Assembly (NCBI GenBank): GCA_903845055.1
Contig: CAIMWF010000046.1
Coordinates: forward strand, 11,712-75,711
Direction: 5' to 3'
Length of the DNA: 64,000 nt
DNA from: an uncultured Bacteroidales bacterium
GTDB lineage: Bacteria; Bacteroidota; Bacteroidia; Bacteroidales; FEN-979
The first letter of the stretch is position 1, and the number at the start of each line of letters is the position of its first letter. The translations under genes were made by a program, and so were the position numbers. This document shows positions 2,516-63,054 of this stretch, piece after piece. Under the pieces are notes generated by a model that saw only the letters and a list, made by a program, of their open reading frames with translations, ran no database searches and was not told where the DNA came from.

Positions 2516-5418
2516 AGCACCTGTTATTGCTCTTGCTGCCACTACTGGCAGGATTTTATTGTAACGCCCAGTATTTCAGCACCGGGCAGGATCCGACAGG
2601 GATACACTGGAGGCAGATCCGGACCGACCACTACCGGTTGGTTTACCCATCTCCATTCGAAAAAAAGGCGCAATATCTCGCCAATATCCTGGATATAGCC
2701 GTAAACAGTGAAACCCATTCCCTGTCGGCAAAGGTCCCGCGCATTCCTTTTTTACTTCACACTAAATCTTCTGTATCAAATGGAATAACCGTATGGGCTC
2801 CCAAACGGATCGAACTCTATCCATGCCCCCCCCAGGATTCCTATGCCGAAGAGTGGCTTGAACAACTCGCCATCCATGAATACCGCCATACCGTGCAGAT
2901 AAGCAAGATCAACCAGGGTTTTTCAAAAGTACTCGGGTATGTCTTCGGGGAGCAGATCACCGGGGGCATCCTCGGGCTCTATCTGCCGGCCTGGCTATTG
3001 GAGGGTGATGCCGTGGTAACCGAAACCGCCATGACACGGGCCGGTCGAGGCCGGTCGGCGCTTTTTGAAAGTACCCTGAAGGCGCAGGTGGTTGAAAAGG
3101 GAATTGTCTCTTATGATAAGGCAACCCTTGGGTCGTACCGGACATTCACCCCGGATGCATATTCGCTTGGCTATTTCCTGGTAGGACAGGCAAGAAAGAA
3201 ATACGGGGTGGAATTGTGGAATACGGCGTTTGACCGCGTTGCCCGATACCCTTTCATGGTAGTGCCCCTCAACAGCGGGATTCACAAGGTAACCGGCCTC
3301 TGGAAAACCAGGCTTTATAAACAGGCACTGGCAGAACTCGACAGTTCATGGCAGCAGCAGCTCCGGGAAACCAGTTTTACCCGGCTTCGCACAATCACCA
3401 AACGCAACCCGAAGAATTTTACCTCCTATCACCATCCGCTTTTGCTGAATGATTCAACGATCATCGCCGACAAATCCTCCATGGATGACATCGGCCGTAT
3501 CGTAATGATTGATCGCTCAGGCGGCCGCGAGCAAATTCTGGTCACCCCAGGGTATCATCACACCGGGATGACTTCCCTCGGAGGAAATTATCTTGCCTGG
3601 TCTGCTTTGGGCTGGGACCCCCGCTGGGGCAACCGTGATTTTGTCAACATCAGGCTCTATGATTTTACCACGGGAAAAACCATGTATCTAACCAGGAGGT
3701 CCCGATATTTCGCCCCTGTCATTTCAAAAGATGGTTCCCGCCTTGCAGCCGTCCATGTTTCGGAAGGAAACCGCTGTTCTTTGGATATTCTTGAAGTTCC
3801 ATCCGGCAGACTTCTCCGTAAATACCCGATCGCGGGGTACGGCCAGGCGATGATGCCCAACTGGTCGGCCGACGCTACCAGGATCATCTTTACCCTGCTT
3901 ACGGAAAAAGGTGAAACTCTGTCAGTTCTCGACACCACATCCGGCACGATCAGGAACCTTCTGCCATTCTCCTACAACGAATTCACCGGCCAGCCAGCCT
4001 GTTACAAACAGTTCATACTCTTTAGCATGAGTTATGCCGGTGTAGAAAATGTTTTCGCGGTTGACACCCTGACCCGGCATATCTTCCGGGTGGCTTCGGG
4101 CCGCTTTGCCACATACCAGCCCTCCGTTTCAAGAGATGGCAGCCACATAGTTCTTTCCGACTACACCTCCGACGGGCTGATGGTTGCTGAAACATTGGCC
4201 GGTCCCGAAACCTGGATTCCCCTGGCACAGATTCCTGCTCCGGATGACTCCCTTGGGCTCTTCAATACACTTGCCGGACAGGAAACGACCAACATACAAG
4301 ATAGCATTGCCATCAGGAACATATACAAGCTGAACACATCCGACAGTTCCCGCCTTGAGAAGGACTCCATCCGGGGCCGCATCCATCCATCGGCCCGGTA
4401 TTCAAAGTTCCTAAACCTCTTCAATCCGCATAGCTGGGCCCCGGTATCCCTCGATGTCAGCAACCTCACCATAAATCCAGGCGTCATGCTTCTTTCCCAG
4501 AACATCTTAAGCACCATGTTCACATCGGCCGGGTGGGAATACGACATCAGCGGGCAAACCGGCAGGTTTTATGCAAGCATGGAATACAAGGGATGGTACC
4601 CGGTACTGACCCTCAGGTTCGATATCGGCAACCGGGCCGGGTATGGACGATACCAGGGTTCGTCGGAAACCTTCCGGTTTACTTGGCAGGAGACTAATTT
4701 TAAGGCATACGTCAGCATTCCCTGGAATTTTTCAGGTGGTCGCTATTCCCGCTATGTACAACCGTCTGTCGGAACAACGCTCATCCTGGTAAATCACAAT
4801 TCCTCAACCCCCGGGAAATTTACCAGCGGGAGCATCCAGACCATTGATTACCGGTTCACCGCTTCCCAGTATCATCAGTCGGACCAGAAGGATATGTTTT
4901 CACGGTTCGGGCAGTCGGTCGACATAGCTTTCCGTCACACGCCATTCAGCACCAATGACATGGGATCGGTTTTCGGCGCAAAGATGAACCTCTACTTCCC
5001 GGGGATTTTGCGCCATCACGGGATCCTGTTCTGTTCAGCATACCAGCAACGCCGCGAAAAGGATGTGATGTCCTATTCCTTTTCGAATCTTATTTCATAC
5101 CCGAGAGGTTATACGAACGCCTATGATGTTGAATTGATCAGCTTAAGCGCCAATTATAAATTACCCCTCTGGTACCCTGATTTCAGCTTCGGGTCAGTGA
5201 TCTATCTTAAACGGCTGAAATTGAATGTTTTTTATGACTGGGCCGAAGGAAAAAATCCTGGTTATGTCAATAAATACCAGTCAACCGGTTGTGAACTGTC
5301 AGCCGATTTCAACCTGCTGCGTTTTGTTGCACCCCTTGAATTCGGTATAAGGAGCCTCTATTATCCCGGTGCGGCTTCCTGGGGATGGGAGTTTTTTTAT
5401 GCTGTTGCACTGAATTAA
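2512..5418 (+). CDS. Exported hypothetical protein (968 aa) with an HExxH motif, TolB-like beta-propeller-type repeats and a beta-rich C-terminal region
   Basis: The ATG at 2512 overlaps the upstream TGA (ATGA) and gives a signal-peptide-like N-terminus, MKHLLLLLLPLLAGFYCNAQ. The earlier start at 2446 in the ORF track lacks one. It carries LAIHEYRHTV (HExxH) and repeated segments such as PVISKDGSRLAAVHVS and YQPSVSRDGSHIVLSDYTSDG, reminiscent of TolB/WD40-like propeller blades. The C-terminal third is rich in alternating aromatic/polar residues. No family is recognised with certainty. Confidence 0.6.
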   Translation: MKHLLLLLLPLLAGFYCNAQYFSTGQDPTGIHWRQIRTDHYRLVYPSPFEKKAQYLANILDIAVNSETHSLSAKVPRIPFLLHTKSSVSNGITVWAPKRIELYPCPPQDSYAEEWLEQLAIHEYRHTVQISKINQGFSKVLGYVFGEQITGGILGLYLPAWLLEGDAVVTETAMTRAGRGRSALFESTLKAQVVEKGIVSYDKATLGSYRTFTPDAYSLGYFLVGQARKKYGVELWNTAFDRVARYPFMVVPLNSGIHKVTGLWKTRLYKQALAELDSSWQQQLRETSFTRLRTITKRNPKNFTSYHHPLLLNDSTIIADKSSMDDIGRIVMIDRSGGREQILVTPGYHHTGMTSLGGNYLAWSALGWDPRWGNRDFVNIRLYDFTTGKTMYLTRRSRYFAPVISKDGSRLAAVHVSEGNRCSLDILEVPSGRLLRKYPIAGYGQAMMPNWSADATRIIFTLLTEKGETLSVLDTTSGTIRNLLPFSYNEFTGQPACYKQFILFSMSYAGVENVFAVDTLTRHIFRVASGRFATYQPSVSRDGSHIVLSDYTSDGLMVAETLAGPETWIPLAQIPAPDDSLGLFNTLAGQETTNIQDSIAIRNIYKLNTSDSSRLEKDSIRGRIHPSARYSKFLNLFNPHSWAPVSLDVSNLTINPGVMLLSQNILSTMFTSAGWEYDISGQTGRFYASMEYKGWYPVLTLRFDIGNRAGYGRYQGSSETFRFTWQETNFKAYVSIPWNFSGGRYSRYVQPSVGTTLILVNHNSSTPGKFTSGSIQTIDYRFTASQYHQSDQKDMFSRFGQSVDIAFRHTPFSTNDMGSVFGAKMNLYFPGILRHHGILFCSAYQQRREKDVMSYSFSNLISYPRGYTNAYDVELISLSANYKLPLWYPDFSFGSVIYLKRLKLNVFYDWAEGKNPGYVNKYQSTGCELSADFNLLRFVAPLEFGIRSLYYPGAASWGWEFFYAVALN

Positions 5419-5450: not shown

Positions 5451-8291
5451 TTAATTTACGACAGATAACTTCAAAGACTGGCTGGTATGGCTGTTCGTGC
5501 ATTTTATGATGTATATGCCCCGGGTGAGACCTGCATCTGCATTGGAAATATAAAAACGGTCAAGCCCGGTTGGCGGGACCTGCGCATGATACGTTTTTTT
5601 CAGGATCCCATCGGTCGCATAAATCTCAATGACCATTTCACTGCCGTCGAAACGGCGGCCCGAAAGCCAGAACCCTTCTGAGGCAGGGTTGGGAAACAGG
5701 CAGATATCCGCCGGAAGTATCCCGGGGACACAATGCGAATTGCTGAAAGTGAACCGGTCAACCATACAGGCCCCGGGCTCTGTCAATTTAAAGACAAGGA
5801 AAATGTCATGAATGCCCGCAGTACCGGCCATACAGCAGATTTTTGTGACATACCCCTTGTCCGTAAATATGAGGGGCAACGTTCCTGCAAGTGTCCCGCG
5901 TAAACTGTCGAGACGGATTTCAAGAAAACCCTCTCCGCCTGCAGATGGTTCAAGTTTTACAAGGGCTTCCATTTGCTCAACACCTGCCCCAAAATCCACG
6001 TTCCGGTATTCAGCAAAATCATCCTGACCGCCATTCATGATGCTCTGCCCGCCGGCTCCGTTTGAAACGATTGCAACTGGATCCGACTTTTTCTCGAAAT
6101 CCTCAGCTTCAAACACTGAAAGACTTTTCCTGGTATAGGCCCGCCCGGCGACATAACCGGTCACCCTGACCTGGCTTTCAAGGCGGATGTCATCGGAGGA
6201 ACTTCCCGTCATGATATCCATCATCCCCTCCTCAACAAGGAAAGACCTTGTTTTTTCGTCATACCACGAAAGGTCCTCCGTTTTCAAAACAAAGGTGACG
6301 GTTTTCGCTTCGCCGGGCTGCAGCGTAATTCTCCTGAAACCTTTGAGCTCAAGGAGCGGCCTTTTTACATAAGTAGAAACATGATGAATATAGAACTGGG
6401 CTACTTCGTCGCCGGCAACATCCCCCGTGTTCTTTACCGTCACACCGACAATGAGCGAATCGCCCCGGTTAAGGGTTGTCCGGCTTTGTGTCAGGTTGCT
6501 GTATGAAAATGTCGTATAGCTTAAACCATGGCCAAAAGCGAACAAAGGGGTGCCCGTAAAATACTGGTAAGTCCTGTTTTCTTTGATATCATAATGATCC
6601 ATTGGAGGAAGATCGGCGATCGATTTGTACCAGGTGGAGGTAAGTTTACCGCCTGGGTTAAAATCGCCCGACACCACATCGGCGATAGCTTCACCCTGCG
6701 ACTGGCCATCATACCATGCGGTGATTATCCCGGGGACCCTCGCCCTGAGGAGATTTATTGACAGCGGGAAGCCTGTCACCAGGACGACGATGGTGCGGGG
6801 ATTTGCCAGCAGAACCGCCATGATCAGGGAATCCTGGATTGCCGGTAAATCCAGCGTGGTGCGGTCATGTTCCTCACCGGCACTTTGCCGGTCGGTACCT
6901 CCGACAAAAATGACAGCATCGGATGTGGCGGCCAGGGCAACGGCCCTGTCGAAGGCAGCCTGGTCTTTCGGGCCGTACAGGGAACATCCCTCCTCAAAAA
7001 CAATCGTTTTCCCCGGGGCGGAAAATTTGTCTGAAAGCCCTTTCAATGGAGTAACCGTGCTGACAGGGAAGCCGCTGTAAGCCCCAAGTTGCACAAGGCT
7101 GGCATTCGGGCCGATAATGGCCAGCCTTGTAATGGATTCTGCCCGGAGAGGCAGTACGGAATGCTCGTTTTTTAGTAAAACAATGGCTTCCCTGGCTGCC
7201 TTTAACGCCAGGTTCCTGTTAGCCAAGCAATTGATGGCAGAATCAGGGATGAAAGTATAGGGGACCATGCCGGGAGGGTCGAATTCACCCAGCAGAAACC
7301 TCGCTTTGAATATCCGGGTAAGGGCGGTGTCGATGTCGGCGACATTCATGATTCCTTTATCCAGGGCTGCTTGTGAAAAAACCTGGTAGGTACCACCACA
7401 GTTGAGGTCAGTACCGCTTTTTAAGGACAGGGCCGTGGCATCATCGGCCCCTTCTACGTAATTATGGAAAGCAAAAACATCGTGCACGGCGTCACAGTCC
7501 GAGACGACGAACCCGGTAAATCCCCACTCATCCCTAAGGATATGTTTCAACAGGGTGCTGTTTACAGGGCCCGGAACCCCGTTCAGGGAATTATAGGTAT
7601 TCATCACTGATAAAACCCCGGCTTTGGTCACCCCTGCCCTGAAAGCAGGAAGGTAATACTCGCGGAGGCTCCGCTCATCAACGTTAGAGGAGATGCTGTG
7701 ACGGTTGTCATCAACATTGTTGCAGGCGAAATGTTTGACGGTCGCAGAAATTTTTAAATACTTTGCGTCATTGCCCTGCATCCCCCGGATGAAGCCTGAA
7801 GCCAGCTGTCCCGCCAGGAATGGATCCTCTCCATAGGTTTCCTCCGTCCGACCCCACCGGGGGTCCCTGGCCATGTTGATCGTCGGACTGTAATATACCA
7901 TCCCCGTGTTGTCGGTATGATTTTTCACCCTTGCTTCATCGGATATGGCGGAAGCCACCTGGAATATAAGGTCGGCATCCCAGGTTGAGGATAATGCGAT
8001 TACCTGGGGAAAGGAGGTTGTTCCCTCTGCAAGCACTCCATGCAGGGCTTCATTCCAGTAATTATAAGCCGGAACACCCAGCCTTGGTATCGACAAAGCA
8101 TTGCTGCCGAGTTGTGAGATCTTTTCCGCCCGGGTCATCCTGGAAACCAGGTCGGAAACCCTGTCATGCACAGGCAATTTCGGGTCCTGGTAAGGATAGG
8201 TTTCACCGGAACTGACTCCCTGGCTTTTACCGGAAACGGCCAGTGACAATAGAAGAAGGCAAAGAAGGATTTTTATTTTTTCAATGAGCAT
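5451..8291 (-). CDS. Glycoside hydrolase family 3 (beta-glucosidase/beta-xylosidase-like) with a CBM6-like module and T9SS C-terminal sorting domain
   Basis: It has a signal peptide, MLIEKIKILLCLLLLSLAVSGKSQG. GH3 hallmarks are KHFACNNVDDNRH, REYYLPAFRAGV and GFTGFVVSDCDAV (nucleophile Asp region), plus an Fn3-like segment DVAGDEVAQFYIHH...ELKGFRRITLQPGEAKTVTF. The segment FEAEDFEKKSD...FAEYRNVDFG looks CBM6-like. The last ~80 aa (LFPNPASEGFWL...GIYIIKCTNSHTSQSLKLSVVN) look like a T9SS CTD. Confidence 0.85.
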   Translation of the reverse strand: MLIEKIKILLCLLLLSLAVSGKSQGVSSGETYPYQDPKLPVHDRVSDLVSRMTRAEKISQLGSNALSIPRLGVPAYNYWNEALHGVLAEGTTSFPQVIALSSTWDADLIFQVASAISDEARVKNHTDNTGMVYYSPTINMARDPRWGRTEETYGEDPFLAGQLASGFIRGMQGNDAKYLKISATVKHFACNNVDDNRHSISSNVDERSLREYYLPAFRAGVTKAGVLSVMNTYNSLNGVPGPVNSTLLKHILRDEWGFTGFVVSDCDAVHDVFAFHNYVEGADDATALSLKSGTDLNCGGTYQVFSQAALDKGIMNVADIDTALTRIFKARFLLGEFDPPGMVPYTFIPDSAINCLANRNLALKAAREAIVLLKNEHSVLPLRAESITRLAIIGPNASLVQLGAYSGFPVSTVTPLKGLSDKFSAPGKTIVFEEGCSLYGPKDQAAFDRAVALAATSDAVIFVGGTDRQSAGEEHDRTTLDLPAIQDSLIMAVLLANPRTIVVLVTGFPLSINLLRARVPGIITAWYDGQSQGEAIADVVSGDFNPGGKLTSTWYKSIADLPPMDHYDIKENRTYQYFTGTPLFAFGHGLSYTTFSYSNLTQSRTTLNRGDSLIVGVTVKNTGDVAGDEVAQFYIHHVSTYVKRPLLELKGFRRITLQPGEAKTVTFVLKTEDLSWYDEKTRSFLVEEGMMDIMTGSSSDDIRLESQVRVTGYVAGRAYTRKSLSVFEAEDFEKKSDPVAIVSNGAGGQSIMNGGQDDFAEYRNVDFGAGVEQMEALVKLEPSAGGEGFLEIRLDSLRGTLAGTLPLIFTDKGYVTKICCMAGTAGIHDIFLVFKLTEPGACMVDRFTFSNSHCVPGILPADICLFPNPASEGFWLSGRRFDGSEMVIEIYATDGILKKTYHAQVPPTGLDRFYISNADAGLTRGIYIIKCTNSHTSQSLKLSVVN

Positions 8292-10156: not shown

Positions 10157-13069
10157 CTAATAGCCAAAAACCGTTTTAAGGTCGAGTGTGTTCACCTGTC
10201 CGTAGGTTGAGAGGGATTTTTCGTCCATCTCTGCTTTCTTGCCCAGCACCATGATGGTGAAGTTCTTTCCCTTGATATATTTTTCCTGGAAGGCCTTCAG
10301 ATCGGCGAAATTCATTTTGGGAACCTTGTTGAAAACATCCTTGCGGATATCATAAGTCAGACCCATTTTCTGCGCATTGATGTAGTTGAACAATACCTGC
10401 GATTTGGTAATGCGCTCGGTGCGGATCTTATTCATGATGGCCTCTTTCGATGAATTCAGGGCTTTTTCGCTTTCGGGCATGTTGTTGAACAGTCCGGTCA
10501 TGGCTTTCATGGCCTCGGGCAATTTGTCGATCTGCGTACCGATGTATGAGAAAAGGTAAAAATTCTGGTACGATTGAACGGGCGTACGGTACCCCGCGTA
10601 AGCGCTGTATGCCAGCCCTTTCGACTCGCGGATCTCCTGGAAAACGATCGAATTCATGCTTCCTCCGAAATACTCGTTGAACAACCTGACGACAGGGATC
10701 ATCTCCTTGTTGTATTTCACCGATTTTGACAACATGACAATCTCGGCCTGTTTCATATTGTAATCAACCGTATAAACCTTCGAAAGGTCCGTTTCAAGCT
10801 GGTCAAATTTCCTGGGGATGGGCAGGGGTTTCAGGTCGGCGGCGATATGATGCTCCTTGGTAAGCACCTGGAGCAATGCAGCCGAACTCTCGGGACCGTA
10901 GTACAGGATTTTGTGCTGGTAGCCGGTCAGCCCCTTGATGAGGTTGACCAGGCTTTTGGCCTGTAAAAGATCAAGTTCTGTGGAAGACAAAATATTGGTA
11001 AAGGGCGACCTGGGACCGTAAACGCCGTAATTGTACATCGCCTGCCATAGGATGGCCTGTTTCGACAGCTTTTCGTCCTCGCGCTTTTTCTTGATATCGG
11101 CCACCATGCTCTGCAATGCCTGAACATCCGGTTGTGGGTCGGCAAGCAATTGTTCAAACAGCGACATGGCGCTTGGCATGAATTCACTCAGACCGCTCAG
11201 CGAAACCCAAACCTCTTCATCAGAGCTGTTCACGTTAAAAGAACATCCCATTTTATAAAACTCCTCTTCGATCTGTTTCGAGGTAAATTTCGAAGTGCCG
11301 AGGTACTTGAGGTAATCAAGCGCGATGGCCATTTCGCGGTTGGCATTGGTCCCCATTCCAAAATAATAATAAAGCGAGAAAGTTTTGTTTTCAGTGTTCG
11401 CTTTATATAGGACTGGGACATTGTTCTTAAAGGTGAACTTTTTAATGTCGTTTGCAAAATCAACAAATACAGGTTCAATCGGGCTGGTTGGCTCTGCCAT
11501 GATTTTTTTCAGGAAGGCCGATTCATCGTCACGGTTCATAGAAACCGGCGTAATCTGCGGTTTCACAACCTTCCTGGCTTCTTTTGCCTGGCCGTTTTTT
11601 TTGAAGACCATCACATAATTGTCCCCGTAATTCTTTTTGGCAAACTCCACGATGTCGCCCTTCGTGATCTTCGAAAGGCGGTCGATTTCGTTCACCAGGT
11701 CGGCATGCGCCTGTTGCTTTACAAACTCATCCACCATGGACATGACCCGCCCGTTGTTCGATTCATATTTCCTGATATTGGCCAGCTTCATATCATTGAC
11801 AACGGCCGGGATCAGCCAGTCGGGGAACGCACCTTTTTTAACCTGTTCGATCTGGGCCATGATCAGCTCTTTCACCTCGTCGAGCGACTGGCCCGATTTT
11901 GCTTTTCCTGAGAAAATGTTGACCGAATAATCTGTCAGGATATAGGAAAATGCATCGGCTTCAAGCACCTTCTGCGCCTTGACAAGGTTCAGATCCATCA
12001 GGCCGGCTTTCCCGTTGCTCAGCACCTTGTTGCAAACCGTAAGCAGGTCGGCATCTTTGGTTGCTACACCGCCCAGGCGGTACCCGATGGTGACCGATTC
12101 GGCATCCGGGCCAACCTCTTCTTTTACAATCGGTTGGGTGATTGGGTCTTCCATGGCGGGGACATACGCCACGACCGGTTTTGAAACAAGCTGACCAAAT
12201 TCCGCGTCAACCATCCTGATCATATCGTCCGGGTTAAAATCGCCCGAAAGTACAATCGCCATGTTGTTGGGAACATAACGGGAGGCAAAATAGTTTTTCA
12301 AAGAGGTCAGCGAGGGATTCTTCAGGTGCTCCACGGTCCCGATGGTCGTTTGTGTTCCGTAGGTGTTTTTCTTGAACAACCCGGAAAACAGGGCTTCAAA
12401 AACCTTGTTGTCGTCGTTGTCAAGACTGATATTTTTTTCTTCATATACCGTCTCCAGTTCGGTATGGAATAACCTGAAAACAGGGCTTCTGAAACGTTCA
12501 TGTTCGATCTGCAGCCATTGACCTGCCTTGTTGGACGGAATATCGTTTACATAAACGGTCTCTTCAAAGGAGGTAAATGCGTTGGTCCCCTTTGCCCCGA
12601 TCCCTGCCAGCAGTTTGTCATATTCATTGGCAATGGCGAACCTGGAGGCAACGCCCGACAGGCTGTCAATCTGGTGGTAGATCTTCCTGCGTTGTAAAGT
12701 ATCCGTTGTTTTGCGGTATACCTCGAATTTCGCCTCAATCTGGTCAAGCAGTACCTTTTCGCTGGTAAAATCCTTCGAACCGAATTCGGTAGTTCCCTTG
12801 AACATCAGGTGCTCAAGATAATGCGACAACCCGGTGTTGTCGGAAGGATCGTTTTTACTACCGGTGCGAACGGCAATGGCCGTCTGGATGCGTGGTGCAT
12901 CCCTGTATACGGTGAGATATACTTTTAACCCGTTGCCAAGCGTATAGATCCTTGCTTTCAGCGGATCACCCGCAACTGAATCATAATGAAATGTTTTCTG
13001 GGCAAGAAGCCCTGTTCCGGCAAGAACCAGGAACGCTGCAACTGCAACACGCGCTAAAAATTTTTTCAT
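10157..13069 (-). CDS. M16-family (pitrilysin/insulinase-like) zinc peptidase, exported, duplicated-domain long form
   Basis: It has a signal peptide, MKKFLARVAVAAFLVLAGTGLLAQ, and the inverted zinc motif HYLEHLMFKGT (HxxEH). Its 970 aa length fits a fused double M16 unit. Confidence 0.85.
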   Translation of the reverse strand: MKKFLARVAVAAFLVLAGTGLLAQKTFHYDSVAGDPLKARIYTLGNGLKVYLTVYRDAPRIQTAIAVRTGSKNDPSDNTGLSHYLEHLMFKGTTEFGSKDFTSEKVLLDQIEAKFEVYRKTTDTLQRRKIYHQIDSLSGVASRFAIANEYDKLLAGIGAKGTNAFTSFEETVYVNDIPSNKAGQWLQIEHERFRSPVFRLFHTELETVYEEKNISLDNDDNKVFEALFSGLFKKNTYGTQTTIGTVEHLKNPSLTSLKNYFASRYVPNNMAIVLSGDFNPDDMIRMVDAEFGQLVSKPVVAYVPAMEDPITQPIVKEEVGPDAESVTIGYRLGGVATKDADLLTVCNKVLSNGKAGLMDLNLVKAQKVLEADAFSYILTDYSVNIFSGKAKSGQSLDEVKELIMAQIEQVKKGAFPDWLIPAVVNDMKLANIRKYESNNGRVMSMVDEFVKQQAHADLVNEIDRLSKITKGDIVEFAKKNYGDNYVMVFKKNGQAKEARKVVKPQITPVSMNRDDESAFLKKIMAEPTSPIEPVFVDFANDIKKFTFKNNVPVLYKANTENKTFSLYYYFGMGTNANREMAIALDYLKYLGTSKFTSKQIEEEFYKMGCSFNVNSSDEEVWVSLSGLSEFMPSAMSLFEQLLADPQPDVQALQSMVADIKKKREDEKLSKQAILWQAMYNYGVYGPRSPFTNILSSTELDLLQAKSLVNLIKGLTGYQHKILYYGPESSAALLQVLTKEHHIAADLKPLPIPRKFDQLETDLSKVYTVDYNMKQAEIVMLSKSVKYNKEMIPVVRLFNEYFGGSMNSIVFQEIRESKGLAYSAYAGYRTPVQSYQNFYLFSYIGTQIDKLPEAMKAMTGLFNNMPESEKALNSSKEAIMNKIRTERITKSQVLFNYINAQKMGLTYDIRKDVFNKVPKMNFADLKAFQEKYIKGKNFTIMVLGKKAEMDEKSLSTYGQVNTLDLKTVFGY

Positions 13070-13140
13070 TGTCTTGGCTGATTAATAAATACTTCACTAC
13101 AAAATTGTATGCCATCCAACCTTCCCCCTCCACGATTCCG

Positions 13141-13177
13141 CCATTTCGCTATTTCGCTACCTCGCTAATTCGCTACC
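13141..13177. repeat. 8-bp-period micro-tandem repeat (CCATTTCG CTATTTCG CTACCTCG CTAATTCG CTACC)
   Basis: Read directly from the sequence. It starts immediately after the gatD stop codon (13178-13180 on the minus strand). Confidence 0.8.
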
Positions 13178-14563
13178 TTATTTGTGGAACTTCCTGATAA
13201 AATCCTCAACCTCCGGCACGCCCCCCTGATATATCAGGTAACCATTGTAGGGTTCGCGACGGGTGATCTCGTCGTTGATCGGGGTCAGCATGATCTCCTT
13301 GACCTTTGCAAGGTCACTGGTCTGACCAAGGGCCCAGCTCAGTTTGATAAAGGCCGTTTCGGGAAGCATGTTCTCGGCAGGGATGATCCCCTTGGCCATC
13401 AGGTCGCGGCCGGTATCGTAAACAAACATGTGTACATAACCCCACAGAGTCTGCACGGTCATGTAAATGGCAACGCCTTTGGCCACGGCACGTTCGATGG
13501 CCGGGTAGATCGGCTTGTTCACATGTCCCAGCCCGGTTCCGATGATGATGATCCCCTTGTAGCCTGCATCCACCAGGGCGTCGATCACATCGGGCTGCAT
13601 GTTTGTATAGTAGTAGATCATGGTCACCTTCTCCTCGTAATAGGGAAGGATCGTCACATTGCGGTCGGTGCGGCGGCGATGGTAGTCCTGCTTGATAGGT
13701 ACAACGCCCTGCCTGGTCACGGTGGCCAGCGGGGTGTCGCCGATGGTACGGAAGGTTGACCGGTAGGAGGAGTGCATCTTCCGCACCCGCGTTCCCTTGT
13801 GAAGAAAGCCGTACTCGTCGGAGGTGGGTCCGAACATGCAGACCATCACCTCGGCGATATCACCATGGGCGGCTGCAGTGGCCGCATGCATCAGGTTGAG
13901 GGCTGCGTCGGAACTTGGGCGGTCGGAAGAACGCTGTGAACCGACAAGTACGATCGGTACCGGTGAATTCTGGACCATGAAAGTCAGTGCCGCCGAGGTA
14001 TAATGAAGGGTATCGGTCCCGTGTCCGATAATGATCCCGTCAATCCCCTTTTCAATCTCGTTGCCGATGGCGATGGCCAGTTTCTTATACTGGTCGGGTC
14101 CCATGTTCTCGCTGAAAACCGCGAATAACTTTTCGGTGGTCAGGTTGCAGATATCGGCCAGTTCCGGAACCGCCCCATACAATTCCCCGGGTGAAAAGGC
14201 AGGGATCACAGCGCCGGTCCGGTAATCGAGACGTGAAGCAATCGTGCCCCCCGTTCCCAGCAGTTTGACGTTGGGTTTATCCTTCGAATAAGGAAACTCC
14301 TTTTCTGGTATCTTATAAACTGCCTTTTTATACCCGAGCTCCTCGATATGTGTAATACCTTCTATTTCAACCCCGATGTTATAGCCGGTGAAAAATTTCA
14401 TGACGATGTGGGTATCGTCGGTGTTTTCAGCACGGGGCAGGATGGTGCCTTCAAAAGTACCCCTGTGGCTGTCGATCCTGACTTTTGCCCAGACCCTGGC
14501 ATTAAACTTCTGCAATACTTCAAGCGCTCTACCCTTGTATCCCTGGAAAATATCTTCGGCCAT
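13178..14563 (-). CDS. gatD: Glu-tRNA(Gln) amidotransferase subunit D, archaeal type (GatD; asparaginase-like glutaminase with GatD-type N-terminal domain)
   Basis: The asparaginase-fold catalytic motifs are intact: LGTGGTIASRLDYRTGAV, IIGHGTDTLHYTSAAL, VGSQRSSDRPSSDAALNL and GTRVRKMHSS. The ~95 aa N-terminal extension (VRIDSHRGTFEGTILPRAEN..DDTHIVMKFFTGYNIGVEIEGI) matches my recollection of the archaeal GatD N-domain, not AnsA. It lies directly downstream of a gatE homologue. Confidence 0.8.
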   Translation of the reverse strand: MAEDIFQGYKGRALEVLQKFNARVWAKVRIDSHRGTFEGTILPRAENTDDTHIVMKFFTGYNIGVEIEGITHIEELGYKKAVYKIPEKEFPYSKDKPNVKLLGTGGTIASRLDYRTGAVIPAFSPGELYGAVPELADICNLTTEKLFAVFSENMGPDQYKKLAIAIGNEIEKGIDGIIIGHGTDTLHYTSAALTFMVQNSPVPIVLVGSQRSSDRPSSDAALNLMHAATAAAHGDIAEVMVCMFGPTSDEYGFLHKGTRVRKMHSSYRSTFRTIGDTPLATVTRQGVVPIKQDYHRRRTDRNVTILPYYEEKVTMIYYYTNMQPDVIDALVDAGYKGIIIIGTGLGHVNKPIYPAIERAVAKGVAIYMTVQTLWGYVHMFVYDTGRDLMAKGIIPAENMLPETAFIKLSWALGQTSDLAKVKEIMLTPINDEITRREPYNGYLIYQGGVPEVEDFIRKFHK

Positions 14564-14567
14564 AATG

Positions 14568-14592
14568 AAAATAGTAAAATGGTAAAATAGTG
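14568..14592. repeat. 8-bp-period micro-tandem repeat (AAAATAGT AAAATGGT AAAATAGT) in the gatE-gatD spacer
   Basis: Read directly from the sequence. In gatD mRNA sense it reads ACTATTTT ACCATTTT ACTATTTT and ends 4 nt before the gatD ATG. Confidence 0.8.
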
Positions 14593-14619
14593 ACTCTGGT
14601 GAATTAGTAAGACAAGTAG

Positions 14620-16581
14620 TTAAAATTTGATTTCCCCGCTGAGTTCCCTGAGTGAAACATTACCGGTGGCCATCCTGTTCAGGTTGCCCATCACCCAGCG
14701 CAAGCCCGCTGTTTCGTCGTGGGAGGTGCGTATTTCACGGTATTTTTTAACAAGGAAGGGAATCTTCCCGAGGATATCCTCCCTGGACAACTGCCTGAAA
14801 TTCAGGGTTACCAGGATGGAGTCAAAATCCATTTTGGGGTGCTGATACTGGTGAAGCAGCATTTTTCGGGCGATTCCCAGGTCGAGGTTCCGTTCGGTCA
14901 GGAACCGCAGAAGGTCATAGACTTTCTCGTATGAAAAGTCTGGCAGTTGCGGGTAATGTCCCTGGATGCTCTTCAGCGTATAGGCGAGCAAAGATGCAGT
15001 AAACCTGGCAGGAACGTTCAGTTCCGATTGTGCCTTTTCGAGGAGGGGAACCAGGTTGTTTTTCAGCACGTAAGTAAAGGTTTCCTGCGGCACATTCCAC
15101 TGCAATAGCTGGTCGAGCCGTTCCGAAACAAGTACGGGAAGGCGCTGCCTGGCCTCGTTGATGGCTGCATCGTCGAGCGGTATCGGGGCAGAGTCGGTAT
15201 CGGGATACATACGGTCGGCGCCGGGCAATACCCGTTCGAAAATGGTCGTCCCGTCGTCGAATGATTTGCGTGTTTCATTGGGAACCCCCAGGAATGCCAT
15301 CTTGCACCGTTCTTCGATAGATTCAAGGGCGGTTTTGATATCGTCGTCGGGGCCCCAGAAGATGATCTGGGCATCGCCTTCTTTGCTGCCGAGCAGCGAA
15401 CGGACCTTTCCCCAGGCTTTTTCTCCCACGGCATCCTCAAACATTTCGGAATGGACCATGTTGGGTTTTTCGATACAGGCAATGACTTTGAGCCGGTCGG
15501 ATAGATCGTCTGCGAACATTTTACCGGGTTGGGTGAAATGGGAAAGAATTCCCTGGAACTGCGGAAGGTTCACGATATAGACCTTCGACATTGAATTCTT
15601 GGGAACACCCAGGTTTTCAAGTTTAAAATCCTTCGCCTTTACCTCCTTCGAGGTGATTTTCCAGTCGCCCGGATTGGCAACCCTTTTCACCAGCAGATCT
15701 TTCACCGCGAGCAGGGCCCATTGGCGGAAACATTCATTGTGGGTCAGTTCGGGCATCCAGCCGGTGTGTGCTACCCCCTTGATCTCCACGCGGGTGCCTC
15801 CTTTGCAGCTCACGTTCACATCGGCCCGCGTTGATCCGATGCCGCTGCGCACCTTGCCGGTGCTGCGGTTCAGAAAGCGGATGTAATCGGCACCCTCCTT
15901 CACCTCGTCGGGGTTCTTAAACTCAGGATAGGTAACGGTTTCGATCAGGGGCATCCCAAGCCGGTCGGTGCGATAGATGCGCACATGGCCGATGTCGGAT
16001 ACCTCGCGGCAGGAGTCCTCCTCAAGGCTGAGCTGGATCAACCTAACCTTTTTATTTTTCAGCTGGATCTCCCCTTCGATTCCAATGATCGCGGTGCGCT
16101 GAAAGCCGGTGGGAATGGAACCATCCAGGTATTGCTTTCGGGTAATATGCACCTCTCCGACAACCTTGAGTTTCGATAACAGGGAAATGTCGATGGCATG
16201 CGAAAGCGCTTCACGGTTCAAAGGAAATGGAGGCGTATCATCCACATCGTAGGTACAGGCTGTTTCGTTCTTGATCCGGTAAATGATATTTTTTCGCGTT
16301 CTGAACTCCATCAGGGCGGTACCATCGTACTCGCCAAGTTCACTGAGGGTTGGCCGCATATGACGGATCAGCTCCGCATCAAAATCATCGGGTTTCTGGA
16401 AGATCCCCGCAGGGCAGTGACAGAATAATTTTTCCTTCGTTTTCAGTTGTTGGTGAACTTCAAGTCCCGACATGAACCCGATACGGTCATAGTCGGCCTG
16501 GGTGGCCTTCTTCCGTGGAATATACCCTATTTTTTGTTCAGTTTCAGCATGGTTGCGCCTGGGGTCAAAGAGTTGTTTCAT
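14620..16581 (-). CDS. gatE: Glu-tRNA(Gln) amidotransferase subunit E, archaeal type (GatE)
   Basis: By eye it is collinear with archaeal GatE: GLEVHQQLKTKEKLFCHCP, RPTLSELGEYD, DDTPPFPLNREAL, RKQYLDGSIPTGFQRTAII, LSLEEDSCRE, YRTDRLGMPLIETVT, GIGSTRADVNVS and GTRVEIKGV. The 653 aa length fits GatE, not GatB (~480 aa). I moved the start to ATG 16581 (MKQLFD) because the TTG at 16611 in the ORF track lies inside a TAATTTTG promoter box. Confidence 0.8.
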   Translation of the reverse strand: MKQLFDPRRNHAETEQKIGYIPRKKATQADYDRIGFMSGLEVHQQLKTKEKLFCHCPAGIFQKPDDFDAELIRHMRPTLSELGEYDGTALMEFRTRKNIIYRIKNETACTYDVDDTPPFPLNREALSHAIDISLLSKLKVVGEVHITRKQYLDGSIPTGFQRTAIIGIEGEIQLKNKKVRLIQLSLEEDSCREVSDIGHVRIYRTDRLGMPLIETVTYPEFKNPDEVKEGADYIRFLNRSTGKVRSGIGSTRADVNVSCKGGTRVEIKGVAHTGWMPELTHNECFRQWALLAVKDLLVKRVANPGDWKITSKEVKAKDFKLENLGVPKNSMSKVYIVNLPQFQGILSHFTQPGKMFADDLSDRLKVIACIEKPNMVHSEMFEDAVGEKAWGKVRSLLGSKEGDAQIIFWGPDDDIKTALESIEERCKMAFLGVPNETRKSFDDGTTIFERVLPGADRMYPDTDSAPIPLDDAAINEARQRLPVLVSERLDQLLQWNVPQETFTYVLKNNLVPLLEKAQSELNVPARFTASLLAYTLKSIQGHYPQLPDFSYEKVYDLLRFLTERNLDLGIARKMLLHQYQHPKMDFDSILVTLNFRQLSREDILGKIPFLVKKYREIRTSHDETAGLRWVMGNLNRMATGNVSLRELSGEIKF

Positions 16582-16608
16582 GGTCAGCGAAAATAGTTTA
16601 TGAGTCCT

Positions 16609-16616
16609 CAAAATTA
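16609..16616 (-). promoter_or_regulatory. Bacteroidota-type -7 promoter box (TAATTTTG) for the gatE-gatD operon
   Basis: The reverse complement of caaaatta is an exact TAnnTTTG match, ~28 nt upstream of ATG 16581. Confidence 0.45.
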
Positions 16617-16650
16617 GCCATTTTGTTGATATCCCGGCTCAAATGTTCAT

Positions 16651-16682
16651 TACTTTTGGTAAGATTGACTTTTGTATCTTTG
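16651..16682 (+). promoter_or_regulatory. Two TAnnTTTG boxes (TACTTTTG 16651-16658; TATCTTTG 16675-16682) upstream of the OstA-like gene
   Basis: Both are exact consensus matches. The TTTG inside the first box could serve as the -33 element for the second. The ATG is at 16701. Confidence 0.45.
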
Positions 16683-16700
16683 CACCGTCAATTCAATCCA

Positions 16701-18215
16701 ATGAAGCGCATCTTCAGGTATTTGTTCCTTCTGCCGGTTATTTTTCATCTTGCTGCTTCCGCCCAGGAAAAGGAGAAGACGAAAATCCAGTATTCCGGGA
16801 ATGTATGGCAGTTCAACAAGGATATTTACAAGGACGGTCCGAGGATCCTCGGCAATGTCGTAATGAACCACGACAGCGCTTTCCTTTTTTGTGACAGCGC
16901 ATATGTGAATGAGGCCGAAAACCGGATGATCGCCTACGGCAATGTACGTGTTAAACTCAGCGACACCCTGAACCTTTACAGCGACTCCCTTAAATACGAC
17001 GGCAATACCAGGATCGCTCACGCCAACAGCAACGTCAGGCTGATTGACAACCAGACCACCCTCACTACCGACACCCTGGTGTATGACCGCAATTCCCGGA
17101 TCGCGCAATACGATTGCTGGGGCAAAATCGTGAACGATAAAAACATCCTGGTAAGCCATCATGGTTATTATTACACCGATGCCAAGGAATTCTTTTTCAA
17201 GGAAAAGGTGCTGATGATCAACCCCGAATACAACATGTACTCTGATACCCTCAAGTACAATACCGTTTCGGAGACTGCCTACTTTTTCGGACCTTCGCAC
17301 ATCATCAGTAAAGACAAAACCGATTCCATCTATTGCGAGAACGGCTGGTACAACACCCGTCTTGATATCGCCCGGTTCCGCAAACGGGCCAAAATATACC
17401 ACGAGAACACCTTTCTCACCGGCGACAGTATCTATTACATACGGGAGGTCGGATACGGGCAGGTTTTCCGGCATGCGGAACTGATCGACACCAAGCAGAA
17501 CATCATGATCCTTGGAAATTACGGGGAGATGCAAAGGAAAAAGGGGTTTGCATTCATGGTCGACAGCGCACAGGCGATCATGGTCGATAAAAAGGATTCG
17601 CTGTTCATGCATGCCGATACCATCCGTGCCACATTCGACACCCTTCAGAACATCAGGACCGTTTTTTGCTTTTACAAGGTTAAGTTTTTCAGGCACGACC
17701 TGCAGGGAATGAGCGATTCGCTCGTATGGATGAGCCGCGATTCCACCCTTACCATGTACCATGAACCCGTGATCTGGTCGGAGACCAACCAGCTGTCGGC
17801 CGATTCGATCAGCCTCAAGATGCATAACGGCGAGGCAGACTCCCTTAAAATGTTCAGTTCGGCCTTTATCGTTTCGAAAGATGACACCAACAGTTTCAAC
17901 CAGGTCAAGGGCAGGACGGTCCTTGCCAAATTCAGGAACAACGACCTGTATAAGGTTAAGGTAATTGGCAACTCCCAGACCATTTACTATGTGCGGGAGG
18001 AGGATAAAAGCCTGATCGGGATCAATGTGGCCGTTTCAAGCGACATGCTCATCTACCTGGACAACAACCAGTTCAAAACCATCACCTACATCGACAAACC
18101 CGACCACCACCTCATCCCGGAAAAGGATGTGCCGGAGAATGAGCGGAAACTCAAGAATTTCAAGTGGGAGGAGAAACGCAGGCCGATGAAGAAGTCGGAT
18201 ATCTTTGTCTGGTAA
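16701..18215 (+). CDS. Exported OstA/LptA-like repeat protein (LptD N-terminal-like beta-jellyroll repeats)
   Basis: I moved the start to ATG 16701, which gives a signal peptide MKRIFRYLFLLPVIFHLAASAQ. It carries repeated OstA-like segments (GNVRVKLSDTLNLYSDSLKYDGNTRIAHANSNVRLIDNQTTLTTDTLVYDRNSRIAQY...). Confidence 0.65.
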   Translation: MKRIFRYLFLLPVIFHLAASAQEKEKTKIQYSGNVWQFNKDIYKDGPRILGNVVMNHDSAFLFCDSAYVNEAENRMIAYGNVRVKLSDTLNLYSDSLKYDGNTRIAHANSNVRLIDNQTTLTTDTLVYDRNSRIAQYDCWGKIVNDKNILVSHHGYYYTDAKEFFFKEKVLMINPEYNMYSDTLKYNTVSETAYFFGPSHIISKDKTDSIYCENGWYNTRLDIARFRKRAKIYHENTFLTGDSIYYIREVGYGQVFRHAELIDTKQNIMILGNYGEMQRKKGFAFMVDSAQAIMVDKKDSLFMHADTIRATFDTLQNIRTVFCFYKVKFFRHDLQGMSDSLVWMSRDSTLTMYHEPVIWSETNQLSADSISLKMHNGEADSLKMFSSAFIVSKDDTNSFNQVKGRTVLAKFRNNDLYKVKVIGNSQTIYYVREEDKSLIGINVAVSSDMLIYLDNNQFKTITYIDKPDHHLIPEKDVPENERKLKNFKWEEKRRPMKKSDIFVW

Positions 18216-18228
18216 AACGCTGGAACAC

Positions 18229-20529
18229 CTACCTGATAAAAACTTTTCCTGTTGCAGTTCCATTGTCTCCAAAAACTTTGACGACATAATACCCGGAGGA
18301 TAAATACAGGCTGATCCTGTTCAGTGAATTACCGATGATTGGCTGACGTCTGATCTCCCTGCCCGGCAGATCGTATATAACAATATCCCCATGCATCATC
18401 ACCGGGATATTTACATACACGATATTTTCCGACGCATAGATCCTGATTTTGCCGGAAACGCCATCCGCAATACCTGAAAATGCCGAAAAATGGATGTTAA
18501 ACCGGTGGCCGGTGCTCCCCGCGGAAGCAGTGAAAGAATAGACCGGGTTGACATTCAGATTCTGGCTTTTATTTAACAGGATGTCTTCCAGGTAAATTTC
18601 AGTTCCATGCGGGAATGTCTCCATCCCCGTTGCAGTAATTGTATAGGGATCAGCAATCCCGGCTCTAAGTCCGACCGGCACAACAATCTGTGATGTCAAT
18701 TCAGGAAGGGAGTTGACAGAAAGATTGTCGGCAGGGATTATGGAGTATACCTGCGGACATGCATCGATACCCCATAATTTATAAGCATCATATTCACTGT
18801 CGAATCCTTCGGATGCATTTGCATTAAAACGGATGGAGGTTACATCTTCAAGGTTGTTCCCGATCACTTTCAGGTCAAGTTGTTCAGCAGCGCTGTTTTT
18901 CACATAGATATTTGCCGAATGCACCCGGTTTGTGTTTGGCACGACCATGGAACCTGAACCCTGACCCGTGGTTACATGTACATAGAATCCCTGTTCGGCA
19001 GGTATGGCATAGGGTGTCACATCCGTAGTCAGATAGGAAACATAGCTTGAACCGCTCCACAGGTATGCCGCAGCATCAACATTGGTCCTTGTGACCGATC
19101 CATCCCATTTAACGGCAGAGGGAAATGCATTGCCTACGAGGTTGAATCCCCTGGCATCTGTTGCTCCGGTATTTGTCAACCCGCTTATTGTCTGGTTGCC
19201 TGAATTCAATGAGCCACCTGTATAGGTGATTATTCCATTCGAGGTTGTCGCAGCGGAATATCCTTTTTTGGGAAGGAGCGGGGTCGTGAGAGGCAAGGTC
19301 ATTGGCGCCCATGTGTTTCCCGGTTCATCCCAGTAATTCAGAAGTGCCCCGAGAAATGAATTGATGGAACCACCCGAGACAGGTGAGGATACATAATGCC
19401 ATGTGATAGTGGCAGGCGGCCAGGTGCCATCCCAGTTGCCGGTCATATAACGCTGAACGGCCGTGGTTCCTGCAACGGTAGTCGTACCCAGGTCGATAAA
19501 CGAACCCGTGGCCCCGGCGTTGGATTCAAGGGTGAAATTACCCCCGACATTTAAAGTGCCCCCGGTGTTGTTGGTTAACCAGGCACCGGGTTTTATATTA
19601 ACATTACCGGTAACATTTGCCCCTGCAGTCAGCGTTGTGTTGGCATTGGCTTTTGAAATAACCACGTTATTGAAATTCTCCGGTCCTGATGTGGCGGAAT
19701 ATTCAAGGTCATAATAATAATAATAATTATCAGTTAAACCACTGGCATCACGGCTTTTTACAGACCCAACACTACCAATGGGATAAGGGTAGGTCACCCC
19801 CGAATTATCGGCATATAAAGCACCTGATAATGCAGAAACGCCCAATTGAAGGTTGGTGCCTGCAGGTATATTAAAATTCAATGTAACTCTTGATGTTCCT
19901 GCTGGTACATTGATGGTTACAGTCTGTTGCACGACTCCCGATGAATTTGCCCAATAAAAAGTCCGGTTCCCGGAAGTAACAGCTTGCACATTTGCTGTTT
20001 TTAGTGTAAATGGTGCTGTACAGTCGAAATTGAGATAATGGGCATTGGCAGAGGTCAGGGTATTTCCAAAAGTTGCTTTTCCCCCGCCAAAAGCAAAAAC
20101 CGATTTGGAAATAGTTGATTCCGTTGTTCCGATAAACTCATTTGTTCCAGTCCCGCAGAAGAACGATCCGTTGTCAAGCCACGTTCCTCCTGTCTGTATT
20201 GCCGCTGTACCCGATAGGGATAAGGTTGCTCCGGAGTTAATTGTTAAATCGCCTGTTACTGTCAACTGGGCGCCACTGACTATATTGATATTGCTGCAGG
20301 AGGAACCCAGGGTCAAATTTCCGGTCCTGACCGGTTGATTGGCAGCAGGACCAATGAGAATGTCATTTGCCGCTAAAGGAACCTGGTTGTTAGCCCAGTT
20401 GGAAGCAGTGTTCCAATCGGAAGAAGTTGTGCCTGTCCATTTCCCTGCTGACCCGACAAAGATGTAGGCTGTTTTTGTTTCTACGTCATTGTCGTACGCA
20501 TTTTGGGCCTTTAATGTAACAGTGTACAA
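18229..20529 (-). CDS. T9SS-sorted surface/adhesin-like protein, apparently 5'-truncated (coding signal continues to 20688, then an in-frame TAA)
   Basis: The C-terminus IRIYASENIVYVNIP...YYVVKVFGDNGTATGKVFIR resembles a T9SS CTD. The N-terminus begins in the middle of a PKD domain (..GLYTVTLKAQNAYDND). The same frame upstream reads YHTCNYDDNGTFTDQSLNTPTSWVWTFSPNTVTYQSG.. up to a TAA at 20689-20691. There is no signal peptide and the only available start is the TTG at 20529. Confidence 0.6.
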   Translation of the reverse strand: MYTVTLKAQNAYDNDVETKTAYIFVGSAGKWTGTTSSDWNTASNWANNQVPLAANDILIGPAANQPVRTGNLTLGSSCSNINIVSGAQLTVTGDLTINSGATLSLSGTAAIQTGGTWLDNGSFFCGTGTNEFIGTTESTISKSVFAFGGGKATFGNTLTSANAHYLNFDCTAPFTLKTANVQAVTSGNRTFYWANSSGVVQQTVTINVPAGTSRVTLNFNIPAGTNLQLGVSALSGALYADNSGVTYPYPIGSVGSVKSRDASGLTDNYYYYYDLEYSATSGPENFNNVVISKANANTTLTAGANVTGNVNIKPGAWLTNNTGGTLNVGGNFTLESNAGATGSFIDLGTTTVAGTTAVQRYMTGNWDGTWPPATITWHYVSSPVSGGSINSFLGALLNYWDEPGNTWAPMTLPLTTPLLPKKGYSAATTSNGIITYTGGSLNSGNQTISGLTNTGATDARGFNLVGNAFPSAVKWDGSVTRTNVDAAAYLWSGSSYVSYLTTDVTPYAIPAEQGFYVHVTTGQGSGSMVVPNTNRVHSANIYVKNSAAEQLDLKVIGNNLEDVTSIRFNANASEGFDSEYDAYKLWGIDACPQVYSIIPADNLSVNSLPELTSQIVVPVGLRAGIADPYTITATGMETFPHGTEIYLEDILLNKSQNLNVNPVYSFTASAGSTGHRFNIHFSAFSGIADGVSGKIRIYASENIVYVNIPVMMHGDIVIYDLPGREIRRQPIIGNSLNRISLYLSSGYYVVKVFGDNGTATGKVFIR

Positions 20530-27502: not shown

Positions 27503-27511
27503 TGCCTGAAT

Positions 27512-42676: not shown

Positions 42677-42707
42677 TTTCTCCTGTCTTTTTGCCTGGTA
42701 TATGGTT

Positions 42708-62943: not shown

Positions 62944-63054
62944 GGGAAAGACTTTACGCAGCTCAAAAATAAAAATCTTTTGCGTGCCCGGCCCCCTTTT
63001 TTTTGAGGAATGCGTTCTCGCGGAATTTTGTATTTTTATCTGCAAAATATCCTG

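Follow-up and report, generated by a model that had tools for sequence, protein, structure and literature searches.

Reviews from 2009 to 2022 describe GatDE, the amidotransferase made of the subunits GatD and GatE, as an enzyme found only in archaea, and the TIGRFAM models for the two proteins are named 'gatD_arch' and 'gatE_arch'. We studied a stretch of 64,000 nucleotides from an uncultured Bacteroidales bacterium (assembly GCA_903845055.1, contig CAIMWF010000046.1, positions 11,712 to 75,711 of the forward strand; hereafter the window), in which an initial annotation had read an intact gatE-gatD pair. The locus raises the question of whether the two genes encode GatDE, whether they belong to a bacterial chromosome and how they came to be there. 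From the sequence comparisons given below we consider it likely that the pair is a functional bacterial operon encoding GatDE, a tRNA-dependent amidotransferase, and that it has a single archaeal origin. The pair does not keep to the archaeal restriction given in the literature; that restriction is a statement about distribution and no argument against membership of the family.

Identity of the gene pair

The features of the locus are as follows:

14620..16581, minus strand: gatE, kinase/amidotransferase subunit, 653 amino acids from the ATG at 16581
13178..14563, minus strand: gatD, asparaginase-like glutaminase subunit, 461 amino acids, ATG start
14564..14619, minus strand: spacer between gatE and gatD, 56 nucleotides
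16582..16700, no strand: divergent intergenic region between gatE and an OstA-like gene, 119 nucleotides, upstream of gatE

Both genes are in the list of open reading frames (ORFs) as the adjacent minus-strand genes of 653 and 461 codons that the initial annotation had described, and the motifs it had named are all found in the translations (TGGTIAS, HGTDT and RKMHSS in GatD; GLEVHQQL, GFQRT, LEED and RTDRLG in GatE).

For GatD we obtained 501 bits against the NCBI equivalog NF003217 (cut-off 310) and 496 bits against the equivalog TIGR02153 (cut-off 324). Three Pfam domains were detected: GatD_N at residues 25-74 (47 bits, cut-off 25.7), Asparaginase at 98-287 and Asparaginase_C at 312-425. 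The best matches in the PDB were the GatD chains of two solved archaeal GatDE enzymes, 1zq1_A from P. abyssi (395 bits) and 2d6f_A from M. thermautotrophicus (383 bits), and the window protein is ∼55% identical to solved GatD as estimated by eye from the alignments. The threonine of TGGT, the HGTDT block and the lysine of RKMH are identical in the aligned 2d6f_A and 1zq1_A; the TGGT threonine, the threonine and aspartate of HGTDT and the RKMH lysine are the residues essential in archaeal GatD. At its C-terminus the window protein extends ∼18 residues beyond the solved archaeal proteins.

The core of GatD has the fold of the type I L-asparaginase AnsA. It passes the subfamily model TIGR00519 with 371 bits (cut-off 260.5), and the archaeal asparaginases 5OT0 and 9UFR align with it. 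It differs from AnsA in carrying the GatD_N domain, in being paired with gatE and in scoring far higher on the GatD equivalogs; its matches to solved GatD reach ∼385-395 bits compared to ∼130 bits for asparaginases.

GatE scored 411.8 bits against the equivalog TIGR00134 (cut-off 319.55) and 455.1 bits against a second model, NF003107, which is marginally below the cut-off of 456. All GatB models gave much lower values, between 46 and 115 bits for cut-offs of 315-680, the best being 114.6 bits for a cut-off of 338. The best PDB matches were again the archaeal enzymes, with 306 bits for 2d6f_C (M. thermautotrophicus) and 275 bits for 1zq1_C (P. abyssi). Positions 3-276 of the Pfam model GatB_N are spread across residues 38-474 of GatE, and therefore an insertion of ∼160 residues lies inside the cradle. 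In the alignment residues 296-420 fall on the insertion region of 2d6f_C, and the catalytic cradle at residues 133-235 aligns to the archaeal GatE structures free of gaps. Relative to the solved archaeal proteins GatE has an N-terminal extension of 29 residues.

The equivalogs were thus passed, the GatB models failed and the best structural matches were archaeal GatDE, which bears out the proposal that the proteins are GatE and GatD rather than GatB and AnsA paralogues. On these profile and structure matches their membership of the GatD and GatE families is confirmed. As in the archaeal enzymes with solved structures (2D6F, M. thermautotrophicus with tRNA(Gln); 1ZQ1, P. abyssi) there are two subunits with the same domain order: GatD combines GatD_N with the asparaginase fold and its TGGT, HGTDT and RKMH blocks, and GatE has a GatB-type cradle split by an insertion, followed by what are probably the helical and tail regions. 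The differences from archaeal GatDE are the Gram-negative host, the two terminal extensions, the lower identity (∼44-46% for GatD and ∼34-38% for GatE) and an insertion (GAD) and YqeY tail that the generic Pfam models miss. With bacterial GatCAB the pair shares the cradle (Pfam GatB_N is common to GatE and GatB) and the kinase/amidotransferase chemistry. It differs in having no adjoining GatA-type amidase or GatC; the partner of GatE is the asparaginase-type GatD.

Gene starts and transcription

The gatE frame is open further upstream, and a TTG at 16611 would give a protein of 663 amino acids (14620..16611). The first ATG in this longer frame is the one at 16581. We prefer the ATG as the start because relatives elsewhere align from residue 1 of the 653-residue form. 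No terminator-like hairpin was found on the coding strand of the gatE-gatD spacer, nor any terminator-like site on the minus strand within 12900-16900. As the spacer has no coding-strand hairpin, gatE and gatD probably share a single transcript.

The initial annotation had also given the operon its own promoter box. The box exists: TAATTTTG at 16609-16616 on the minus strand, 28 nucleotides before the gatE ATG, matches the Bacteroidetes −7 box (TAnnTTTG). This pattern occurs 35 times in the window compared to 34.1 expected by chance, and therefore the presence of the box alone is no evidence of a promoter; the assignment of TAATTTTG as a candidate promoter is based on its position. A scan for sigma-70 promoters gave nothing above chance.

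Bacterial setting

We then asked whether the pair belongs to the chromosome on which it was found. The two flanking genes were assigned with Pfam:

10157-13069: M16 peptidase, on the gatD side
16701-18215: OstA-like protein, on the gatE side

The Pfam annotation of 42 window genes gave bacterial genes, many of them typical of Gram-negatives, and nothing archaeal. They include genes for LptD, LptF/G, OstA-like, MlaD and Amidase_3 (N-acetylmuramoyl-L-alanine amidase) proteins, queuine tRNA-ribosyltransferase (TGT), extracytoplasmic function (ECF) sigma factors, a GH3 glycosidase and the M16 peptidase. Among these 42 genes there is no glnS, gltX, gatA, gatB, gatC or asnS. The flanks had been described as bacterial; this stands, as do the labels of the M16 peptidase and the OstA-like protein. 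The label was not confirmed for the protein of 766 amino acids at 18229-20529, which had been called a cargo of the type IX secretion system (T9SS) and has no Pfam match at E<=1e-5. A weak relative of the latter, with 32% identity, occurs in locus L077.

The composition of the locus agrees with its surroundings. There is no step in GC content at the gene pair, and 24% of the windows of the same size have a tetranucleotide profile at least as distant from the window average as that of 13178-16581. The GC content at third codon positions (GC3) is 0.64-0.68 for gatD and gatE and ranges from 0.46 to 0.71 for the other genes examined. Neither measure makes the pair an outlier, which upholds the earlier impression, gained by eye, that the base composition shows no break.

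The gene order is also found elsewhere. The arrangement Amidase_3-MlaD-OstA followed by the divergent gatE-gatD, with an M16 peptidase or ClC gene behind gatD, recurs in ∼14-20 loci of other assemblies. It is present on the closed 5.27-Mb chromosome OY820914.1, and the same bacterial flanks stand with the pair on a single contig in L001, L002, L005, L006, L009 and others that come from different projects. Because the same neighbourhood recurs in independent assemblies the gene pair is not chimeric. Together with the continuous tetranucleotide profile this in practice rules out a chimeric join, a concern that had been raised at the outset.

Had an archaeal fragment entered a bacterial contig by mis-assembly or mis-binning, its flanks would not be expected across projects, on three closed chromosomes (5.27, 4.18 and 4.10 Mb) and in cultured isolates. 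The fragment would also have to be free of any tetranucleotide or GC3 anomaly, and the nearest archaeal GatD is only ∼46% identical. Beyond the archaeal reputation of the family we found nothing in favour of such an artefact, and we regard it as vanishingly improbable. Chimerism and contamination were rejected for gatE-gatD on synteny and composition; the pair is native to a bacterial chromosome.

Distribution among bacteria

For the genome scan one genome per GTDB species was used. Close relatives of the window GatD were confirmed in at least 590 of these species-representative bacterial genomes, and the loci of the best 80 of them (numbered from L001) were compared. In these 80 the GatD proteins are 75-97% identical to the window protein. 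The cultured carriers among them include Marinifilum fragile, M. flexuosum, Labilibaculum euxinus, Labilibaculum sp. K2S and Ancylomarina longa. Metagenome-assembled genomes (MAGs) with the labels Lentimicrobium, Prolixibacteraceae and Salinivirgaceae are also among the 80, as are three closed chromosomes and genomes with the labels Ignavibacteria, Cloacimonetes (from a single cell), Zixibacteria and Aminicenantes. A protein search gave 8000 matches at E<=1e-20. There are more than 120 protein clusters with 81-93% identity. The 120 matches listed, all in this range, come from MAGs of Bacteroidales, Bacteroidota, Bacteroidia and Sphingobacteriales, and many of them already bear the NCBI or JGI name 'Glu-tRNA(Gln) amidotransferase subunit GatD'.

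The initial annotation had implied that such a pair is rare in bacteria, and this was not borne out by the number of species genomes or by the names in the databases. It had also foreseen that a pair both common and annotated in related Bacteroidota would be real and not novel, which is the situation that we encountered. The family, its chemistry and the database names for bacterial GatD are known, the latter for years, and the window pair is one of hundreds of annotated copies. The existence of a bacterial GatDE clade, its monophyly and its nesting within archaea appear to be undescribed. We found no report of bacterial GatDE in the papers searched; in part of this search the ordinary word 'gate' obscured the matches.

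In 70 of the 80 loci the gene immediately upstream of gatD is gatE. Of the remaining ten, four are cut at contig ends, and six have gatD with no neighbouring gatE (L035, L041, L044, L062 and L073 with gatD at 6001-7383, and L051 with gatD at 3370-4752), among them the closed chromosome OY781965.2. In these six loci GatD is 77-81% identical, and no gatE was found 3-6 kb upstream or elsewhere in the locus; presumably the gene is located elsewhere in these genomes or was lost. Clustering of the 598 ORFs of the 80 loci gave no conserved functional partner: the neighbours are housekeeping genes that differ between families. Scans for tRNAs and Rfam families across the window and the 80 loci gave no linked tRNA(Gln) or regulatory RNA. 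The window and 79 of the 80 loci are devoid of tRNA genes, and L072 has a tRNA-Leu and a tRNA-Gly.

Constraint on the two genes

We compared substitution rates between the window and related genomes. Synonymous divergence (dS) is saturated beyond the closest genome, so the ratio of nonsynonymous to synonymous rates (dN/dS) is usable against L001 and, for GatD, also against L002. Against L001 we obtained a dN/dS of 0.021 for gatD and 0.049 for gatE, and values of 0.036-0.049 for the flanking genes. In each of five genome pairs the dN of GatD was the lowest of all genes compared. The protein identities across L001-L012, which keep these neighbours, are 86-97% for GatD, 69-88% for GatE, 53-83% for the OstA-like protein and 64-80% for the M16 peptidase where it is present. 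GatD is thus far more conserved than GatE and the flanking housekeeping genes, and both gatD and gatE are under strong purifying selection.

Origin of the bacterial genes

An exhaustive search of representatives at 50% identity gave 439 clusters at E<=1e-30. The closest named archaeal GatD proteins (Sigynarchaeota, Thermococcus, Nitrososphaerota and Bathyarchaeia) are ∼44-46% identical to the window protein. The nearest sequences outside the crown of the bacterial clade (see the trees below) were more divergent bacterial relatives. The GatD of P0121 is 56% identical; the genes around it are bacterial and include two-component regulators and a Glyco_transf_9 gene of the heptosyltransferase family, and gatE lies upstream. 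P0122 (52%) has a bacterial-looking context, and P0123 (52%) lies on a short contig on which AsnA is the sole gene with a Pfam assignment. The context of P0154 and P0305 contains a protease with a Por_Secre_tail (T9SS) domain.

GatD trees were computed by neighbour-joining with simple corrected distances on the asparaginase-domain region, and two archaeal asparaginases from the PDB alignments served as the root. The bacterial GatD proteins were monophyletic in 95/100 and 198/200 bootstraps, and the crown of the Fibrobacterota-Chlorobiota-Bacteroidota (FCB) group in 98/100 and 198/200. The bacterial clade is nested inside archaeal diversity, and a topology with the bacteria outside an all-archaeal clade occurred in 0/100 and 0/200 bootstraps. 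For GatE the ranking of identities is the same as for GatD, with 41-43% to other bacterial proteins, 38% to that of the archaeal contig L083 and 34% to M. thermautotrophicus, which is consistent with a joint transfer of both genes.

Because the bacterial clade is monophyletic and nested in archaea, these results fit a single old transfer from archaea to bacteria that has since been fully ameliorated. The pair would have entered bacteria once, from an archaeon and long ago, and would later have been inherited by or spread among Bacteroidales-type Bacteroidota, other FCB lineages and a few more divergent bacteria. An old, ameliorated transfer between the domains had been one of the initial suggestions, and it explains the rooted GatD tree and the composition best.

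The deep bacterial branches besides the FCB crown (P0121, P0122, P0123 and P0154, 37-56% identity) could also be explained if GatDE was inherited vertically from ancient times, retained by the FCB lineage and lost by other bacteria, without any transfer between domains. A tree rooted at its midpoint sets the bacterial clade opposite all archaeal sequences, as this explanation would have it, and the full amelioration of the genes agrees with it as well. It is contradicted by the asparaginase-rooted bootstraps, of which none placed the bacteria outside monophyletic archaea. The carriers form a small patch of bacterial lineages, so that very many independent losses would be needed, and the FCB crown is shallow, with the 75-97% identity of the best 80 relatives extending across phyla. 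We therefore consider vertical inheritance very unlikely and retain the single transfer as the origin of the pair.

The donor is a separate matter. In the best tree the sister group of the bacterial clade is a small set to which a Sigynarchaeota protein belongs, together with one encoded on a contig that carries genes for fibrillarin, Nop5 and L37ae; its support is 76/200, and at this value we do not claim the Asgard archaea as donor.

Several relatives showed unusual gene arrangements. On the archaeal contig with fibrillarin, Nop5 and L37ae (L083:5868-9832) a gatE of 715 amino acids overlaps a gatD of 606 amino acids whose C-terminus carries an Archease domain; the L083 protein belongs to the small group beside the bacterial clade in the best tree. 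At L082:9301-12132 a single ORF of 943 amino acids joins an N-terminal part of GatE (∼480 residues), with the cradle and the insertion but lacking the helical and tail domains, to a GatD that is complete. The contig has a bacterial look (a Ser/Thr kinase with TPR repeats, PIN-TRAM and MFS-acyltransferase), and the ORF could be a real fusion or an artefact of assembly or a frameshift. In two deep-branching members of the bacterial GatD clade, L084:10001-12657 and L085:502-3829, the gene after gatD is asnA, for aspartate-ammonia ligase. The gatE of L084 is 2.4 kb upstream of gatD and separated from it by two unrelated genes, and Pfam GatD_N was not detected in the GatD of either locus.

Function and tRNA recognition

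By analogy with the archaeal enzyme the function of the pair is most probably the amidation of Glu-tRNA(Gln) to Gln-tRNA(Gln). GatD, with its asparaginase-fold glutaminase, would release ammonia from glutamine as in the characterised archaeal enzyme. GatE would phosphorylate the gamma-carboxyl of the glutamate on tRNA(Gln) at the expense of ATP and pass the ammonia on to give Gln-tRNA(Gln). The substrate Glu-tRNA(Gln) would have to come from a glutamyl-tRNA synthetase (GluRS) of the non-discriminating type in the same cell, and GatE would need to be able to read a bacterial tRNA(Gln). The strong constraint on the gene pair argues that the cell depends on GatDE.

In order to see which parts of GatE are conserved we counted the invariant positions among 67 bacterial GatE sequences. 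There are 143 of 266 in the cradle, 5 of 90 in the helical region and 11 of 88 in the tail. The invariant tail residues include MG...A.GN, and a motif at this position has been linked to tRNA discrimination (PMC2811023). Since the cradle is invariant at so many positions, the helical and tail regions vary and the Pfam modules are missed, the alignments indicate that the catalytic machinery of GatE is conserved and that it is the modules in contact with the tRNA that have diverged.

For GatB the element that reads U1-A72 is a 3-10 turn (PMC2811023). The cradle region of the window GatE that matches this turn aligns gap-free to archaeal GatE, which suggests that no GatB-type U1-A72-reading element has been inserted; the apparent absence of the element was judged from the alignment to archaeal GatE.

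Several points weigh against a functional bacterial GatDE of archaeal origin. Two tRNA-binding modules, Pfam GAD and GatB_Yqey, went undetected in the window GatE even at E<=10; both are clear in an archaeal GatE. In bacterial relatives GAD was detected weakly in the GatE of L081, and the GatB_Yqey match in the Marinifilum orthologue is also weak (21.7 bits, cut-off 27). Among bacteria GatE is least conserved in its helical and tail regions. The archaeal enzyme recognises archaeal tRNA(Gln) by its A1-U72 pair and D-loop (PMC9499178), whereas the bacterial tRNA(Gln) recognised by GatCAB has U1-A72 (PMC2811023), and presumably this is also the tRNA(Gln) that the window pair would meet. Therefore either the recognition changed or the substrate differs. 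Surveyed Bacteroidales have glutaminyl-tRNA synthetase (GlnRS), and if the source genome has it too, an amidotransferase specific for Gln would look redundant. Finally, neighbour-joining trees on simple distances, as used for the origin, allow long-branch effects.

Alternatively, the pair could be a repurposed paralogue that kept its chemistry and acts on another substrate, such as Asp-tRNA(Asn), a different acyl-tRNA or a carboxylate that is not on a tRNA; it would then duplicate the supply of Gln-tRNA(Gln) or have nothing to do with it. The long stem branch between the bacterial clade and archaeal GatD agrees with such a change. So do the low conservation of the insertion, helical and tail regions that the GAD and YqeY models miss, the extensions at the GatE N-terminus and the GatD C-terminus, the Bacteroidales surveyed with GlnRS and without GatCAB (PMC4206432), and the position of gatD next to asnA in two deep-branching bacterial relatives. 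However, the GatE-specific hidden Markov model aligns in one stretch, across residues 28-642 and up to model position 611 of 630, which suggests that the helical and tail modules are present, and weak traces of the YqeY tail and of GAD are seen in the Marinifilum orthologue and in L081, respectively. The MG...A.GN residues of the tail are kept in all 67 sequences, the catalytic blocks are unchanged, and both proteins exceed equivalog cut-offs on which NCBI bases functional names. We judge repurposing, which the initial annotation had also raised, to be unlikely and continue with Gln-tRNA(Gln) formation as the probable function.

The phylum is a mosaic with respect to this step. According to Table S1 of PMC4206432, glnS is present and gatCAB absent in Bacteroides, Alistipes, Barnesiella and Flavobacterium. 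The reverse holds for Cytophaga, Belliella, Cyclobacterium, Echinicola and Fluviicola, and also for Fibrobacter and Chlorobium. The initial statement that Bacteroidota generally carry GlnRS is accordingly true only in part. The carrier genera Marinifilum, Marinilabilia, Anaerophaga, Draconibacterium and Cloacimonas are all absent from this table. A third route via GatDE in lineages of the Marinifilaceae, Lentimicrobiaceae and Prolixibacteraceae type would fit the mosaic of GlnRS and GatCAB.

We propose, tentatively and as a possibility that we do not favour outright, that GatDE is the sole route to Gln-tRNA(Gln) in many anaerobic Bacteroidales-type Bacteroidota and other FCB bacteria, and that it replaced the ancestral GatCAB there much as GlnRS replaced GatCAB in Bacteroides and Flavobacterium. 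If this is true, the phylum holds three alternative solutions to one step of translation. The tRNA-reading modules of GatE would then have been retuned from archaeal A1-U72 to the bacterial tRNA(Gln), and GatDE would work with a bacterial non-discriminating GluRS.

Significance of a bacterial GatDE clade

Reviews regard GatDE as a signature enzyme of archaea, and the lack of any acquisition of GlnRS by archaea has been explained by the co-evolution of GatDE with archaeal tRNA(Gln). With a large and strongly constrained bacterial clade the 'archaea-only' premise falls away. The clade is also a natural experiment in the adaptation of a tRNA-dependent enzyme to the tRNA and the GluRS of another domain, and as cultivable hosts exist (Marinifilum, Labilibaculum and Ancylomarina) the question is directly testable. 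For annotation the consequence is that gatD and gatE are unsuitable as archaeal markers or as flags of contamination in bacterial MAGs. The distribution would surprise specialists of aminoacyl-tRNA synthesis; nothing mechanistically new is shown by it.

Archaeal-type membrane-lipid genes have been reported in bacteria of the FCB group. They resemble the present case as archaeal-signature genes in Cloacimonetes and other FCB bacteria, and the pathway is unrelated; we regard the likeness as a lead only.

Other genes in the window

Four further loci of the window drew our attention. At 41453-43505 the gene for a di-haem cytochrome c peroxidase (MauG-like) overlaps a gene of the MbnP family, a pairing known from copper-acquisition loci. 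On the minus strand at 26294-28874 a CHAT-domain protein of 402 amino acids is followed by a protein of 270 amino acids without a Pfam match and then by a protein with a weak match to sigma-70 region 2. The protein of 1027 amino acids encoded at 47680-50763 is a homologue of the TMEM260-like protein O-mannosyltransferases. A protein of 1058 amino acids, encoded at 59965-63141, has both a receiver domain of the response-regulator type and a PPDK_N domain (pyruvate phosphate dikinase-type).

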